A stretch of 63,123 nt of DNA, the filler included, from Reclinomonas americana ATCC 50394 (taxonomy: Eukaryota), in assembly GCA_048213135.1 (NCBI GenBank). It is 11 parts of 11 records of this genome, joined end to end, with 100 filler letters (N's around TTAATTAATTAA, not from the genome) between each part and the next. Parts side by side here need not be neighbours in the genome. Positions count along the whole stretch, not along the records: positions 14,462 to 16,380 come from AFZH01018909.1; positions 16,481 to 31,649 come from AFZH01018910.1; 9 more parts are not named here. The stretch is one strand, 5' to 3'. Numbering within the stretch: the first letter of the stretch is position 1; every line of letters begins with the position of its first letter. The notes under the pieces are model-generated. The model was given only the letters and a program-made list of their open reading frames with translations. It was not told the DNA's origin and ran no database searches. Of this stretch, positions 13,692 to 43,900 are shown in pieces. A program made the position numbers and the translations under genes.

Positions 13692-13743
13692 TCCTTGTCA
13701 CTGAGTGAGTGTCCTCTGTGACAGTCAGTCAGAAAGAGACGAA

Positions 13744-14361
13744 ATGAGGAGCCGACGTCGCCTAAGCGACACCTTATCCTCGCCTTCCTCTTCGTCTTCC
13801 TCCTCTGCATCGTTTCGCGTGCGAGAGTGCGCAGTGGACGAGAGCGACAATGGCGAATGCACGCGCGTGTGGTCGTCGGGAGTGCGCGAGCTCACTGCAC
13901 TGGTCACCCGTCACATGTTCCTCACGTGGCACATTGCGCGTCTGTATGCGTTCATACTCGCAGTGGCCAGTGTCATGTGGTGGCAGTTTGAGGTCAGTGA
14001 GCGTGCAACACACACTCTGGTGTGCCTCACTCACTCACGTGTCGCTCAGTGGCCGCTAGAGTGGATCTTGAGTGGGGTTTTCGTGGCGGGATGTGTGCCT
14101 CCAGTGATGGTCTGGTGGCATGTGCGATCAATGGTGGAGCGGCTGGTGCAGGAGGGCACGCGCGAGGATATGAGCTCGGTGGTGGAGTTCTATCAGTGTC
14201 GATGGTCGCCGGCGTTGGCCAAGAGCGCCTTGCCTCCGCCACCCGACAAGGTGCAATGGAGTGGCAAGCTGGAGAGCACAGTGCCAAGGTGCTGCAAGAT
14301 GCGCCACTTTTGCGTCGCCGAGGATGCTGCAGTTGCGCACCTGTACGTTGTATGCGAATTG
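13744..14361 (+). CDS. NAT8/NAT14 (camello)-like membrane GNAT acetyltransferase; N-terminal part, truncated by the gap
   Basis: FRVRE..D..ECTRVWSSG, then a two-helix hydrophobic hairpin, then EDMSSVVEFY...HFCVAE, as in the NAT8-family layout. The acetyl-CoA motif would fall in the gap. Confidence 0.6.
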
Positions 14362-14583
14362 NNNNNNNNNNNNNNNNNNNNNNNNNNNNNNNNNNNNNNN
14401 NNNNNTTAATTAATTAANNNNNNNNNNNNNNNNNNNNNNNNNNNNNNNNNNNNNNNNNNNNAGTCACGCAGCAGCTGAAGTGGTGTACGAGGCTTGCCCT
14501 ATGCGGGCCTTGAGTGCTCGTCGCCACTGTCGAAGTTGAACGGATTTGAGCCTCTGTCCGTGCCTGACAACTTGACTGCTGCA

Positions 14584-17266
14584 ATGCCGAGAGTGTACCG
14601 AGTGCGCTGGTGCATTCAACGCGCTGTGGCCTTTGGTCAAGAGGTGGGCACATGCACTCCTCCACATTCACTGTGATTCTCTCTCTCTCTCTCTCTCTCT
14701 CACTCTCTCTCTCTCTGACATGATGCTTGCAAAGGTGCGACTGTGTGGCGAGTTGGGCAGTGTTCGCACACACACCTCGCATCCTCTCTCGTGGAATCCA
14801 CACGAAAGCGCAGTGCAGTTGCACTGGAGTGCGGGTGACTGGTGGACCTCTGAGTTGAGTGAAGAGTGAGAAAGAGAGAGAGACGAGAGATTGAGAGATA
14901 TTGAGAGAGAATGAGGGACAGATAGAGAGAGAACAGAGAGCCTGAGAGCCTGTGTGTGAGAGAGAGAAGAGAAAGACAACTCACTCCCTCTGTGTGGACA
15001 ACAAACAGCGAGGTGCAGCTCACTGTGGATGATCACGCGGAGGAGTTCGTCGACACTGCTGCGCTGCCACTGGTGGTGTACAAGTACTGTGTGATGGGGG
15101 CGCAACAAGAGCATGACGGAGGCGATGGATGCGTCTGGGAGGGTGCCTATGGTCTCGATCGGGAACTGTTAGCACATGAATCGCTGTGGGTTGCCACGCC
15201 CGTCTTGTCTCCTTGTGCGTTCTTCTTCTTCTTCGTCATGTTGTTGGTTGGTGCGCGCACTCATTGTCTTGGCCAGTTGTCATTCGCGATCATTGGGTGG
15301 AGTCTGGCGCGGAGAATGTTGCGCTGTAGTGTGAGCGTGTCTTTGACCTGTTTCTCCGAGCGACTCACCGCGTGCACAGTTTTGGCGATCGTCGGAGCTG
15401 CAAGTGTCGCTGGATGAGGTGCTGGCGACTGTGTCGATGATGTCGGAGGATGAACTGGGCGATGAGTCGTTGGTGTGTGATTGTGTGTGGTTTTTCCGAC
15501 CGTTCCAGCCCTCGCTGGTGTCGCTGAATCAGTCCACGTGCAGGTGGCGACGTATGTTCGTGTGCAGTGCTCACAAGTGGTGCGACACGCTCGTGGCGAC
15601 GATGAGTGGCCAGTGGTGGTGCTGCAAGGAACACTGGAGCCGCTTGGTGTGTGCATGTGCTGTGATGGGAGTCCGTTCCTGCACACCAAGCTCACTTGTG
15701 TCGGATTAGGTTGCTGGGGCAGCCGTTCACCACCCGGCATTCAACTGGCGCCACTGGGCGACGGCGGAGTGTGGCACTGCTGTGTCTCATTACCCACGGT
15801 TGCCGTGGACGACGGTTCTGCGCAGTTGCGTTGGTCATGGAGATGTGTTTCTTCATTCTCGCTGCTTACGTCTTCTTCCATCCAGATACAAGTACGCCGT
15901 GTGCACCGCAAGAGGTGCGCGCGCAGAGGTTGCGTGGAAGGATCTGACGTGGGAGGAGGGCGAGAATCGTACGTTGCAAGTACCGCAGGCTCTCGTGCGC
16001 GTCGAAATTCCCGACGATGGCAGGTTCGTGGAAGCTCTTGTACTCACAGTGGTCGTGTTTGTTCTCTCATTCGTGTTGTTTCTGTCTTCGCGTGCAGTTC
16101 GCATGCTGGTGACGGCGCATTTGCGGCTCTGTCACGCGCTCATCAGCGATCCGCGGCGGTGCGACAGTTGCGACCGGTGGTGGTGATGGCCGACTTTCCA
16201 CTTCGTCATGTGCCGCGATACGAAATGCCATTCCGCGGCTTGCACAATCCCACAGGCTCCATTTGCTACGCCGCATGTGTGCTGCAGGTGCGAGCGTGTG
16301 ATGAGAGCCGCGAGTCATGCACGTTGTGTTCACCAATGTGTCGCACAGACCATGCTGCACACCGAGTACGTGCCAGTGCANNNNNNNNNNNNNNNNNNNN
16401 NNNNNNNNNNNNNNNNNNNNNNNNTTAATTAATTAANNNNNNNNNNNNNNNNNNNNNNNNNNNNNNNNNNNNNNNNNNNNCGAGGAGGGCCATTTGGTAC
16501 GCGCGCTGGCGCCTTACCTCAACGCGGCGATTGGTGTCGAATGTACCGACACCATGTGGGACGATGCGCGACCACCGGAAGAGCCTCACATGGTGAGTGT
16601 GCAGCGCTCAACGGTGCACTCTACCCTATTTGGGAATGCTGAATGCGCAAGTTTGAATAGGTCGGTGGCAGTCACGTGATGCTGCTGTGGGAGATGCCGC
16701 AGGTGTTGTGCTGTTTCGTGACTGGCTGGTACGAGAGCGCCAGTTTTATGGAGCACGTGACGGAGCACGCACTGCGGAAGGTGTGTTCGCACAGCGCGAA
16801 TGATGGCGTCTCACTGCCCTCTCTCACCCTCTGCAATGACGCAGAAACACTGTTCGCGCGGCCAGGGTTTCATTCGACCACCCATGTTGTACTTTCGCCG
16901 TGGCGGTGCCGAGCCGATGCATGCACGCTACGAGCTGCGAGCGTTACGTATTCTCCTTCAATGCGCGAGTTTTCCCTCCTCCTTACCTCCTCCTCCTCCT
17001 CCTCCTTGTGCGCAGCGTCATTATGCACACGGGATTCGAGCTGGACGGTCACAACTTTGTGTACGTCAGACCGCCGAGCCTGCGCACGTGGCTGGTGATG
17101 GACGACGAGCGAGTGCATCGCGTGTCGGAGGCGACCGCCGTGGGCGAGCACATTCCCGATCCCACTGCCGTTCCTCGTGCGTTGTCCTTCGCCTCTTTGT
17201 ACACCAAATTCGTTCACGGTACTCACTCTGTTGGGCGCAGATTATCTGGTGTACGTGCGGGTATAG
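14584..17266 (+). CDS. Ubiquitin-specific protease (peptidase C19) with two N-terminal CBM20 starch/glycogen-binding domains; spans gap 16381-16480
   Basis: CBM20-1: VRWCIQRAVAFGQE|VRLCGELG..WNP..AVQLHWSAGDWW..YKY..VWEG..DR. CBM20-2: VVLQGTLEPLG|CWG..GVW..|YKY..TWEEGENR. Cys box: GLHNPTGSICYAACVLQ. His box: YELR|SVIMHTGFELDGHNFVYVR..WLVMDDERV. C-terminus HYLVYVRV*, TAG at 17264-17266. Confidence 0.8.
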
Positions 17267-39303: not shown

Positions 39304-40548
39304 TCACTTGTCTTCTACCACTGCCACCTCCTCCCCATCCTCCTCCTTCTCCTGCGTCACATGCGCAAACGCCACCTCATCTGTCCAGCACAACTTGAAA
39401 TCGTTCTCCGGCTCCAGCTTGCGCACCCATACCTGCATGCCGACATGCAGCACCTCCAACTCGCCAGCGTACGTGGCCAAGAAGCCGTCAATGGCCGGCT
39501 TGGGGGTGTGGTGCGCTGGCCGCCGACCGTACATCCACAAGTAATCGTCCAGCGCCAGTACGCCTCCCACACGCAGCAAATGGAAGGCGTGCACGGCGTC
39601 CTCCAGCGTGCGGGTCGCCGTGTGGCACGCATCCACGTACACGAAATCGTACAACTCGGTGCGCGGCTTGTCGGCCGTCAGCAGACGCATCATGGCCGGG
39701 AGACTCTCCTCGTGTATGTACCGCACACGACCCTGCTCCATGTACGGCTTCAACGCCCGCTGGAAGCGCTCCACCGGCCCGTGATAATCAATGCAGTCGA
39801 TCGTGGCCTCCGGCAACGAGTTGCGCATCATAAAGAGCGCCGAGCGGCCCTCGTAGCTGCCGACCTCCAGCATGCGCAGCGTGGTGTTGAACGGCACAAA
39901 GCTGTAGAACATTTGCGGGAACATGGACGTCGTCATCCAATCGTCGCCGAGGAACAACTCGCTGTCGGGCGGGCTCGGCGGGAAGGTGCCCTCCGGCAGT
40001 GCGGCCACCAGTCTCTCGCGCTCTGCATACCGCGCGCGAGCCACCGAGTCGCGTACAGCCGACACCAGCGCTGCATGCACATTGCGCACTGTCGCACACT
40101 CGTCGATGGCACGATCCCGCATAAAGGCGATCACTGGGTGGGTGAAGGGAGTGAGAAAGGGAGTGTCCACAGTGTGTTCGTGTGTGTGTGTCAGTCTGCG
40201 TCCCTCGCTCTCTCTCTCACCTGCTTCATGCGTGTTGCTCTTGCCGACCACCGACAACACCTTTGCCTCCTCCTGATCGACACTCATGAGGACGCCAGTC
40301 ACATCCGTCATTGTGCGCGCCTCGTGCAGATCGACCGCGCGCAGAGACACATTGTGCTCGTCGGAGAGACAGGCGGCGAGGAAGAGCTCGCGTGGTGTTG
40401 GTTGAGGAGGCGGAGGAGGCGGAGGAGGTGGAGCAGAGTCTTTCTTGGCTTTCCGCTTGATCTCACGTGCGTCGGCGGTGCATGTCAGCAGAAGCGCGCA
40501 GGCAAGAAAGACAAGAGCGATGGTGAGGAGCGCGCGATGTGGCGACAT
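39304..40548 (-). CDS. Class I SAM-dependent methyltransferase (Methyltransf_24-like) with an N-terminal signal peptide/anchor
   Basis: Leader MSPHRALLTIALVFLACALLL; motifs MLEVGSYEGRSA, IDCID, YDFVYVDACH..LEDAVHAFHLLRVGGVLALDDYLW and TPKPAIDGFL. One intron. Confidence 0.88.
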   Translation of the reverse strand: MSPHRALLTIALVFLACALLLTCTADAREIKRKAKKDSAPPPPPPPPPQPTPRELFLAACLSDEHNVSLRAVDLHEARTMTDVTGVLMSVDQEEAKVLSVVGKSNTHEAGERESEGRRLTHTHEHTVDTPFLTPFTHPVIAFMRDRAIDECATVRNVHAALVSAVRDSVARARYAERERLVAALPEGTFPPSPPDSELFLGDDWMTTSMFPQMFYSFVPFNTTLRMLEVGSYEGRSALFMMRNSLPEATIDCIDYHGPVERFQRALKPYMEQGRVRYIHEESLPAMMRLLTADKPRTELYDFVYVDACHTATRTLEDAVHAFHLLRVGGVLALDDYLWMYGRRPAHHTPKPAIDGFLATYAGELEVLHVGMQVWVRKLEPENDFKLCWTDEVAFAHVTQEKEEDGEEVAVVEDK

Positions 40549-40975
40549 GAGATGAAATTGGACAGCGCGGTCCTGCACGCTGTCTGCTGTGATGTCGACG
40601 AGTGGGTCGACGAAGGGGAAGAGTGCTGGCTGCGGGCTGTGTTTGAGACGATCGCAAGTGCAGTTGGTCGACGTTTGCGATATCGATCGCATTCGACGAG
40701 CTGATATGCCAGCAATGCGCATCTTACACTCACTAGTATGATCGTGTGCGCGTTTTGTCACTTGTGTGCATCGCTCGTTGTTGCCTGCAGTTGTGAGTGC
40801 GCAACGTCGACGTCGATGACTGATATCTTCCCCGACGTCGATCGACGACGTGAACCGACAAGTGCGCAGCTTGTAGAACCACTCGCGAGTACACACGCTG
40901 TCTGTTGCTTGACTGTATACGTCTTTCTCCGTGTTTGCGTGAAGTTTTCGCACAGGACACTTGATCTCCAGCACC

Positions 40976-43900
40976 ATGAGCGGCGGTCTCGAGGTGAGCT
41001 TTCTCACACCCACACACAGCTCCCTCGCCTACACACGCGCCTCGTGCAACCACCATCTCCATCGCTCGTCTCTGCATGCACGGAGGGAGTGTTCTTCCGC
41101 GCGCCATGTCGTCATGCTCACAACAAACTGCACACGCGCTCTCTCTCTCTCTCTCTCTTCTCTCCGCATAGGACACTGCTGGGTGGTTGCACAAGCAAGG
41201 CGGTGCCATCAAGACATGGAAGCGACGATGGTTCTGGTTCGATGGAGCGCGCCTAAAGTATGGCAAGAAGCAGGGCGCCGCCGCCATCTCCTTCATACCG
41301 CGTCGCTCCGTCTCGCTCGTCGACTACGAAGACGAGGTGCCGAGTGGACCGAAAAAGTACCGCGAATTCGGCATCAAAGTGCGCCCTCTTGTTGTGTGTG
41401 TGTGTGTGTGTCCGCGTGACTCATCATCGTGTGGCAGGTGGTGACCTCGGAGCGCACGTACACGTTTCTTGCGGAGGACTCTGACTCGCGTGTGCTGTGG
41501 GTGGAGGCGATCATGGACTGGATTGATCGGCCGGCGGAGGATTTCCCCGATGAGGCGCTGGAGACGGCGTCGGCGGGTGGTAATGAGGACGAGGATGATG
41601 ATGATGATGGTGCGTTGTATGGTGTGTCGTCGTCATGGTGGTGGTGGTGGTGATGATGCTGACACGGTGTGTAGATCACAAGTCGATGAGCGGACGCAGT
41701 GAGGCTTCGGTGTTGTCGGCGTCGTCGACGGCGTCGACGGCGGCTGTGCCGAGCAAGCCGGCGGTGGCTGTGGCCTCACCGNNNNNNNNNNNNNNNNNNN
41801 NNNNNNNNNNNNNNNNNNNNNNNNNTTAATTAATTAANNNNNNNNNNNNNNNNNNNNNNNNNNNNNNNNNNNNNNNNNNNNGCTGCTGCTGCTGCTGCTG
41901 CAACTCCAGCTACGGAGACCACGGCCGCGGCCGAGGAAGCACAGCTACCAACGAGCGGATTGGTTGTGTCGGGCATTCGCGCCAGTCGAACAACAAGCAA
42001 TTCAGGTTCATCCTCTGGCAGTGGCGCCTCTGGTCCCGGCACACCGACTGGCGCCAAGAGGCCCTCAGCAAGTACCACCGCTGCAGCGCAGGCACTGTCG
42101 GGTACACGCACGGGCCTCGGTCCAGTGTCGAACAGCGGGTCCGCGTTGTTGCGAGGCTCCAGCACGGGAGGACGCAGTGGCAGCACTGCTGGTAGCGGTG
42201 GTTCCTCTGTGGCGGCTCTCGCTGCCGCCAGTCTCGCCAGCGTCCCGTCAATGTCGGCAAGCGCCACCGAGTACAGCAGTTCGCCCAAGTCCGGCGGCAA
42301 GATACCATCGCGTCTCTCCAGTCGTCCGGCCCCAGTTGCCGTGGCTGGTGATGATTCTTCGTCATCGCCTGTGCCGATTCCGGGAATTGGAAGTATCCGG
42401 CGGCCGTCAGCTTCCACCGAGTCCACAGGCTCTGCTGCATCTGCTGCGTCCGGTTCCGGCAGTAGCACTGCAGCTGGCGCTGCGTCTTCGCCCGACACAC
42501 CCACCGCTGCTGCTGCTGCTGCGGGTGGCACTACTTCTGCGAACGGAGCGTCGGGCTCAGCCGGTAGCGGAGAGGGCGAGAGTACGGCAACAGCAAAGCC
42601 GCCAGGTGTGTTGTCGATTCGTGCTGCCGAGAGCCTGCCCGTACTCATTCGCTCGTTAGCAGCCACTCCGCGACAGCCTGTGATGAGTCTGGGTATTGCT
42701 GGCATGTCGACCATGCGGGGTGTGTCTCCGCTGGTCAAGGACTTTGCCGACATCGCCTCACGCGAGAGCATTATGAATTTGTTGAAGACCGATGGTGAGT
42801 AGGCAATAATTGCGCGCACAGTCGGGGCCGCTGTGTCGTTGCGCTGACACAATTTCTGTGGAGTAGAAAACGGTGTGTTGGTCATGTCGGATATTGTGGA
42901 GAAGGAGAATAAGCGCGGCAAGCGGCAAGCACGCCTTCTCTGTGTGCTGGAGCGTGCATTAGTGTTGTTGACGCCACCCAGTGCCTCGAGTTCTGTACTC
43001 CACGTCCTTCCCATTGACAAGGTAATGTGTGTGTGTGCACGGCCTTGTGCACATTCTTGTTCTCCCTGACATCCGATTGTCAGCTCGCCGGCATTTTCCT
43101 GTCGGAGGAAGAATCGACGTGCCTTGCGTTCCGTGTGTACGGCGATCACGATTTTCTGTTGCTGTCACCGAATCGAGTGGACTTGGTGGAGCTGTTTGTG
43201 CAGCTGGCGCAGTCGCGCAGTGAACGACGTCTGCCGTGCACAGTTGCGTGGCGGAATGCTCTCTCTCTCTCTCTCTCCCTCTCCCTCTCCCTTCTGTATC
43301 TGAGTCTCACTGTCGTGCGCCGTTGTCTACCACAGCGTGTGTCCAATGTGCGCACCGTGCTTCACCGCGACAAGATCACTCCCGCGCTCCCCGACGACAT
43401 CAATGGTGAGGGTCGCGCGAATGACCGGCAGTGCTTGCATGGCAGGCGCATCTGATCACGACTGTTGGTTGTGTGCTGCAGAGCTGAGTCGCATGCAGCT
43501 GGTCGGTGCCGATCGCGATCTGGCTCAATTGGCACATCACCCCACAAGCATGGCCAGTCTGGCCGCAGGTGGTGAGTAGTTGCTGTCGCGCAGCACTATT
43601 TTTTGCTCATTGCTCATCATCTCATCTCTCCCACAAAGGCGAGACCAAAGTACTGTTCTCAGTGCTGCTCGCCAAGGTCAATCATCGCGACACCAAGCAA
43701 CAGCGGTACTTGTGCATCACTGACGCGACAGTGTACACATTTGACTTGGACTTTGCGTGTCTGCGTCGCATCGAAATCAAGGTTGGTGGAGACTTACACG
43801 CGTTCTTGCGTCACCCGGGATTCTCAACGCAACTTCATTCATGCGTGCAGGACATCTCGTCAGTGGTGGTGAGCACTGCAGATGAGGAGACATTTGCCCT

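Follow-up and report, generated by a model that had tools for sequence, protein, structure and literature searches.

A candidate storage-glucan-directed deubiquitinase with two CBM20 modules ahead of a divergent USP7-type domain in Reclinomonas americana

A stretch of 63,123 nucleotides from the genome of Reclinomonas americana ATCC 50394 (hereafter the window: a scaffold of eleven parts with 10 artificial 100-nucleotide spacers and a G+C content of about 57%) holds a gene in which two carbohydrate-binding modules of family CBM20 precede the catalytic boxes of a ubiquitin-specific protease (USP). The predicted product is a divergent USP7-type domain behind two CBM20s. Our favoured explanation, to which we assign a probability of roughly one half, is a deubiquitinase tethered to storage granules and acting on granule proteins. 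The CBM20-CBM20-USP architecture had been put forward in a preliminary description of the window, and is upheld by an exon model, by selection between two copies of the gene and by an independent homologue from outside the genome.

The gene, its two copies and an outside homologue

The gene comprises 15 exons with GT-AG boundaries and no internal stop, interrupted by one assembly gap (Table 1). Ten exons, beginning with the ATG at 14584 and running up to the gap, encode 365 amino acids on one contig (C3442) and five more, which would belong to the same transcript, encode 171 amino acids on the next (C3443), up to the TAG ending at 17266; all 13 introns are of the GT-AG type and measure 61-155 nucleotides. 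The start codon is presumably that at 14584; the frame is open for 35 codons 5' of it, yet non-synonymous differences occur there between the copies of the gene.

The assembly (108 Mb in 16,441 contigs, with intron-rich genes) contains two near-identical copies of most of the genes that we found in it, and we read these pairs as haplotypes. The second copy of the CBM20-USP gene lies, reversed, on contigs C2239 and C2238, with 92-95% nucleotide identity to the C3442/C3443 copy, and the breakpoints and order over three contigs are common to both. Between the exons of the two copies there are 25 synonymous and 2 non-synonymous differences, a ratio of non-synonymous to synonymous divergence per site (pN/pS) of 0.025 (binomial P 7e-14). 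These are spread evenly over the halves of the gene (13 synonymous and 1 non-synonymous; 12 and 1), each with a pN/pS of 0.025. Exons carry no insertions or deletions, introns carry 59 substitutions and 42 inserted or deleted nucleotides, and 13 of 13 splice-site pairs are retained in the second copy. The pN/pS and the intact splice sites support the exon model and indicate that both halves of the gene are under strong constraint.

The sequence within the gap was not found in a search of the assembly, where the 21-nucleotide contig end has no occurrence other than the two contig ends themselves. Within contigs, the copies are identical over at most 321 nucleotides at a stretch, which suggests that contigs probably break at longer shared stretches. 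As the distance from the catalytic Cys to the catalytic His is 243 residues in a USP7-like paralogue and 139 here with the gap excluded, the gap would conceal some 70-130 residues from the thumb and fingers of the USP, with the QxD box among them.

Further support comes from a distant metagenomic protein of 240 amino acids (P0001), encoded on a single 1368-nucleotide contig in ENA and matched through the linker and Cys box at 44% identity. Upstream it carries half of a CBM20, the C-terminal one (8-13 bits, where shuffles reached at most 3.4). It retains the YKY and WE.GENR motifs of CBM20, the linker, and the Asn and Cys of the Cys box, and ends before the His box. P0001 looks like an intron read-through frame. 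Judged from the protein alone, its introns would sit where those of the window gene do, namely ahead of both the CBM20 Trp motif and YKY and behind the LQ of the Cys box. The presence of a CBM20 half followed by a Cys box in P0001 argues that the fusion is not an assembly artefact and that it occurs in a second, diverged organism. The preliminary description had also placed the CBM20s and the Cys box on one contig, and this is confirmed.

Searches of protein collections by word index yielded nothing beyond P0001 and are weak negatives. Relatives were confirmed among none of 595 and none of 259 candidates from two metagenome scans, nor among any of 37 from a viral scan, and two ESM Atlas searches returned no cluster combining CBM20 and UCH; what they gave were short clusters, UCH or unnamed, that stayed below 0.9 and are leads only. 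No natural CBM20-USP fusion was found in the full-text literature, most subscription papers lying outside that search. In a survey of 74 metazoans the CBM20 partners reported include no USP, and its supplements might add more (PMC12913940). The searched collections cover spliced eukaryotic genes poorly, so the rarity of the fusion is not established.

CBM20 and USP domains

Three CBM20 profiles were built: one from 8 pieces found in this assembly, one from 147 pieces of bacterial origin representing 76 loci, and one from the two sets combined. Against these, spliced CBM20-1 and CBM20-2 scored 14.9 and 14.4, 7.9 and 10.9, and 9.5 and 14.4 bits, above the best of 1000 shuffles in each case (5.7, 0.7 and 2.3 bits). 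Pfam was run on single exons of the gene rather than on the spliced protein, and one of the 11 pieces (16847-16945), being in the wrong frame, was set aside; exon 8 matched CBM_20 (PF00686) at 15.7 bits (E 0.013, below the cut-off of 23.3) and exon 14 matched UCH (PF00443) at 17.7 bits (E 0.0028, also below cut-off). A PDB search with exon 8 returned no match, and a model predicted from the single sequence of part of CBM20-2, introns included, had a predicted local distance difference test score (pLDDT) of 39.

The site-1 residues listed for STBD1 are W293, K322, W334 and N339 (PMC11406230). CBM20-2 has Trp210, Trp229, Lys248, Trp268 and Asn273, among them all four site-1 residues. In CBM20-1 the site-1 residues Trp40, Lys85 and Trp103 and the core Trp57 are present, the site-1 Asn has become Asp, and 7 residues are inserted before Trp40. 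The earlier claim that both modules keep their binding-site residues is therefore correct for CBM20-2, the only one with an LG..W motif, and only partly so for CBM20-1. Site-1 positions are assigned by analogy with STBD1, and both modules may bind starch or glycogen.

For the catalytic domain, we follow the usual names of the USP boxes. Scored with a profile built on 17 His boxes of the genome, the His box of the gene reached 32.3 bits, against a shuffle maximum of 4.6. The box aligns in register with that of human USP7 in a PDB search (E 0.06), and its His-Asp spacing of 17 is that of USP7. Its reading as SVIMHTG needs one correction, as the S arises from intron read-through and the spliced residue is A. 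Among 30 USP loci of the genome, near none of which a CBM20 was found by searches that miss divergent exons, the best paralogues of both USP halves are USP7-like genes (E 0.05 for the Cys box). Alignment of the Cys box with that of P0001 gave an hhalign E of 1.5e-4, above 200 of 200 column shuffles. Asn342, Cys348, the His and the Asp are all present, the first two in both copies and in P0001, with one residue more between Asn and Cys than in a normal USP. The P.VL part of box 4 is a weak match (1.5 bits, equalled by 2 of 1000 shuffles). Protease activity and ubiquitin specificity are predicted.

A PDB match of the Cys-box exon to NHL/Pizza repeats was also considered; it covers a short motif only and ends before the Cys helix, and was rejected because that helix follows the USP paralogues and is conserved in P0001. 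Elsewhere in the genome, a USP7-like paralogue (contig C102, L035, 77228-78203, minus strand) has an intact His box and a Cys box without the catalytic Cys, and is probably a pseudo-deubiquitinase.

Table 1. Exons and landmarks of the CBM20-USP gene, with other features of the window
Feature	Position in window	Strand	Content
Exons 1-4	14584-14643, 14735-14853, 15009-15214, 15277-15317	+	Presumed start ATG and CBM20-1, about amino acids 1-135
Exon 5	15380-15472	+	Acidic linker between the CBM20 domains; frame and splice sites retained in second copy
Exons 6-8	15544-15646, 15710-15824, 15886-16023	+	CBM20-2, about amino acids 175-290
Exon 9	16098-16287	+	Linker (44% identity to P0001), then USP Cys box
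Oxyanion Asn codon (exon 9)	16246-16248	+	
Catalytic Cys codon (exon 9)	16264-16266	+	
Exon 10, start only	16349-16380	+	Cys-box helix continues; contig end cuts exon; second copy identical
Assembly gap	16381-16480		Runs of N with all-frame stop linker; artificial 100-nucleotide spacer, not true length
Exons 11-13	16482-16592, 16661-16780, 16845-16942	+	End of fingers region, weak box 4, into His box
Exon 14	17016-17176	+	USP His box; predicted catalytic His codon 17050-17052, Asp codon 17101-17103
Exon 15	17241-17266	+	Last USP strand, TAG stop; no USP7-type C-terminal ubiquitin-like domains
Upstream gene	13743-14361	+	Hydrophobic, probably membrane-spanning segments; no Pfam match; gap at 14362 cuts gene
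Long frame	39307-41028	-	Methyltransf_24 domain (Pfam E 4.5e-13)

A candidate ligase and the glucan genes of the genome

When the genome was searched for CBM_20, 13 matches forming five groups were recovered, but not the CBM20-USP gene itself. One of the genes recovered lies on a single contig (C927, L133:6940-8727, plus strand) and has six exons encoding 435 amino acids without a stop, with three CBM20s and then a C-terminal RING. Pfam places two of the three CBM20s above cut-off, and the RING matches zf-C3HC4_3 (E 4e-12, 46.2 bits against a cut-off of 27), its best PDB matches being cIAP2, cIAP1, MYLIP and XIAP. The second copy (C2460) reaches no further than the fourth exon and gives a pN/pS of 0.13 in the CBM part. 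These features suggest a candidate glucan-targeted E3 ligase, a putative writer opposite the USP; a functional link between the two is proposed solely from their common domain logic and their presence in one genome.

Genes of glucan metabolism are also represented. GT5 synthase-like exons occur on paired contigs C365 and C129 (L140-L143), and phosphorylase matches on paired contigs as well. On C365 two GT5 pieces lie on opposite strands, possibly through local mis-orientation. On C4029 and C5150 (L012, L013) a CBM20 precedes the beginning of a 4-alpha-glucanotransferase-like motif, in a gene that is probably of the DPE2 type. Another gene, on C4533/C4534 (L132 from 5983, L129) and C4421, has three N-terminal CBM20s and then low-complexity and coiled-coil-like sequence with a weak ATG16 match (E 0.006, below cut-off); it is a possible granule scaffold. 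A further contig (C2; L014, L015, L138, L139) exceeds 1.6 Mb, has a G+C content of 47%, no introns at the loci read, and a CBM20 gene 32-65% identical to genes of Bacteroidota, chiefly Chitinophagaceae; by these features it is evidently a bacterial genome within the assembly. Pfam searches of 22 long frames of the window gave one match, the methyltransferase of Table 1, and no glucan gene cluster was seen there.

Family searches of the genome found neither a GT3 synthase nor PPDK_N, the domain sought for GWD/PWD. As for laforin, none of the 28 dual-specificity phosphatase loci fetched, from 42 DSPc matches, carried a CBM20 (maximum 5.3 bits, against 9.3-11.1 for the CBM20-USP gene's own exon). 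The same searches missed the CBM20 and UCH exons of the CBM20-USP gene, so these negatives do not prove absence. Of the partners whose co-occurrence the preliminary description proposed to check, laforin, GWD and, in its GT3 form, glycogen synthase were not found, by searches that miss divergent exons, and the system is not a laforin-malin system as such. Its broader suggestion of a glucan-linked ubiquitin system gains from the triple-CBM20 RING gene in the same genome.

Substrates, alternatives and known systems

Under the favoured explanation, a USP7-type cysteine deubiquitinase would have its usual targeting domain replaced by two CBM20 modules, which would hold it on the cell's storage alpha-glucan. 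There it would strip ubiquitin from granule-bound proteins, for example synthase, phosphorylase or glucanotransferase, these being presumptive substrates, and would probably oppose the triple-CBM20 RING ligase, which would tag the same proteins. Canonical RINGs usually hand ubiquitin from an E2 to protein lysines. Together the two would govern how fast enzymes turn over or granules undergo autophagy, with the ligase in a role like that of animal laforin-malin, which is described as targeting glycogen enzymes through CBM20 (PMC6116066).

Several observations weigh against this explanation. Firstly, the Cys box alone scores 3.4 bits, a value matched by 1 of 1000 shuffles and thus moderate support, and it matched no USP in the PDB. 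Secondly, CYAAC stands in place of CYMNS (the Asn after the Cys is replaced), GHN in place of GHY (the Tyr after the His is replaced), and the L.RF (LKRF) ubiquitin-contact motif of box 4 is absent, so that ubiquitin binding may be altered. The catalytic triad, first described as intact, is so in its residues and not in their surroundings, and about one third of the catalytic domain falls in the gap. Thirdly, P0001 was the sole protein that phmmer returned from 1.84 billion representatives. Finally, the RING gene opens with 40 unconstrained, Arg-rich codons that look like a mitochondrial presequence, which leaves its start and location uncertain, and the ligase might not be cytosolic; RNF213, moreover, illustrates that ubiquitin enzymes can carry a CBM20 for purposes other than storage glucan (PMC11549300).

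The alternative that survives best holds that the CBM20s present a glucan chain from which the USP cuts ester-linked ubiquitin off glucose, reversing the CBM20-RING ligase or another one. We consider it unlikely, and less likely than deubiquitination of granule proteins. RING-type ligases include the Deltex enzymes. These modify non-protein hydroxyls, a number of USPs can act as esterases, and changes to the triad are tolerated in esterase catalysis (bioRxiv 10.64898/2026.10.20.760496). In TssM, an esterase with an Ig fold and a USP, Asn and Cys are 6 residues apart, as in the protein described here (PMC10719079; bioRxiv 2026.10.20.760496). Ubiquitylated glycogen is abundant in fasting mouse liver, OTULIN is reported as unable to cut the ubiquitin-glucose bond (PMC13345935), and deubiquitinases for most non-protein substrates are described as not yet named (PMC12203941). 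However, the glucan-modifying ligases that appear in these accounts are HOIL-1, ARIH1 and RNF213 rather than simple IAP-type RINGs (PMC12203941; bioRxiv 2026.10.20.760496), the literature cited here reports glucan ubiquitylation in mammalian systems only, and no feature of the CBM20-USP sequence specifically marks an esterase. A full polysaccharide-ubiquitin cycle is a doubtful extension; in it the RING protein would bring E2~ubiquitin to the storage glucan and ubiquitylate glucose hydroxyls there, and the USP would be the first dedicated glucan-ubiquitin esterase, the two controlling granule autophagy independently of the animal HOIL-1/LUBAC system.

It is similarly improbable that the USP fold is degenerate and no longer acts on ubiquitin; it would then cleave some other modifier or a peptide, or sit on the granule as a scaffold or reader of ubiquitin with weak catalysis. 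Substitutions at several conserved USP positions would fit such a role, as would the 100 residues before the His box, whose resemblance to the USP7-like paralogue is at chance (262 of 1000 shuffles score as high), and the paralogue without a catalytic Cys (L035) offers a precedent in the same genome. The four catalytic residues are nevertheless under strong selection, and the Asn and Cys are retained in P0001 although neighbouring residues have changed.

Binding of foreign or non-storage carbohydrate, from ingested or cytosolic bacteria, with the RING and USP tuning defence or xenophagy in the manner of RNF213, appears quite unlikely. RNF213 is a CBM20-bearing E3 that coats pathogens (PMC11549300), the assembly holds the large bacterial contig C2, and the insertions of CBM20-1 fall near site 1. 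The CBM20 of RNF213 is, however, described as being under positive selection (PMC11549300), whereas the modules here are almost invariant between copies; CBM20-2 has the full alpha-glucan site-1 set, and both modules resemble the CBM20s of the genome's own glucan-type genes. Least probable is that scaffolding error has set the His-box half of another gene beside the CBM20 and Cys-box half: no contig spans the gap, its sequence is missing, P0001 stops short of the His box and the two copies, coming from one assembly, are not fully independent in their shared order, but order and orientation agree over three contigs, each contig ends or starts within an open exon, the halves are complementary, USP7-like and equal in pN/pS, and even such an error would leave the CBM20-Cys-box fusion standing on one contig and in P0001.

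Granule-tethered deubiquitination may also be set against known systems. USP7 has an N-terminal MATH/TRAF domain and C-terminal ubiquitin-like (UBL) domains. The protein described here resembles the USP7/USP47 subfamily in that its Cys and His boxes are nearest to USP7-like paralogues, its His box matches human USP7 and the Asn, Cys, His and Asp are present; it differs in its two N-terminal CBM20s, its stop after the last USP strand and its atypical CYAAC, GHN and missing LKRF. With neither MATH nor UBL it is no USP7 orthologue, and another locus of the genome (L034) is a closer USP7 candidate.

Laforin (CBM20 and a dual-specificity phosphatase) with malin (RING and NHL) is alike in that a CBM20 brings ubiquitin machinery to glycogen (PMC6116066), whereas here a USP and a RING each have CBM20s of their own by direct fusion, and no phosphatase partner was found (0 of 28 loci); PMC6116066, as far as its relevant parts go, names no dedicated eraser. 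RNF213, with CBM20, AAA+, RING and RZ finger, is likewise a natural CBM20-bearing ubiquitin enzyme (PMC11549300), but a very large ligase acting on lipopolysaccharide and pathogens, while the window protein is a predicted hydrolase; compared with it, the triple-CBM20 RING protein is small, and its gene model has no AAA+ or RZ domain. As RNF213 is already known, a CBM20-bearing ligase is not new in kind. TssM resembles the window protein in its beta-sandwich domain followed by a divergent USP, which in TssM is fingerless and acts as isopeptidase and esterase (PMC10719079). TssM is a bacterial protein whose Ig domain has no description there as a CBM20; its Cys-to-His distance is 134 residues (PMC10719079), against 139 here already without the gap, and the likeness is drawn from descriptions rather than from sequence comparison. 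HOIL-1/LUBAC and OTULIN share the theme of ubiquitin control of glycogen (PMC9016349, PMC13345935) but are not CBM20 fusions, a Nature study having brought HOIL-1L in through an engineered CBM20. What is new here is the occurrence of a CBM20-USP fusion and a triple-CBM20 RING gene in one genome.

Ubiquitin on glycogen and on glycogen enzymes is known in mammals, and the enzymes that remove it are described as largely unnamed (PMC12203941, PMC13345935). A natural CBM20-USP is a candidate eraser that can be addressed with existing reagents (Ub-PA, ubiquitin-maltoheptaose and ubiquitin-glycogen), and it or the CBM20-RING protein could serve as a glycogen-targeted research tool. That the genome has a CBM20-RING gene as well suggests a separate origin, outside animals, for the control of storage glucan by ubiquitin, through direct fusion of domains.

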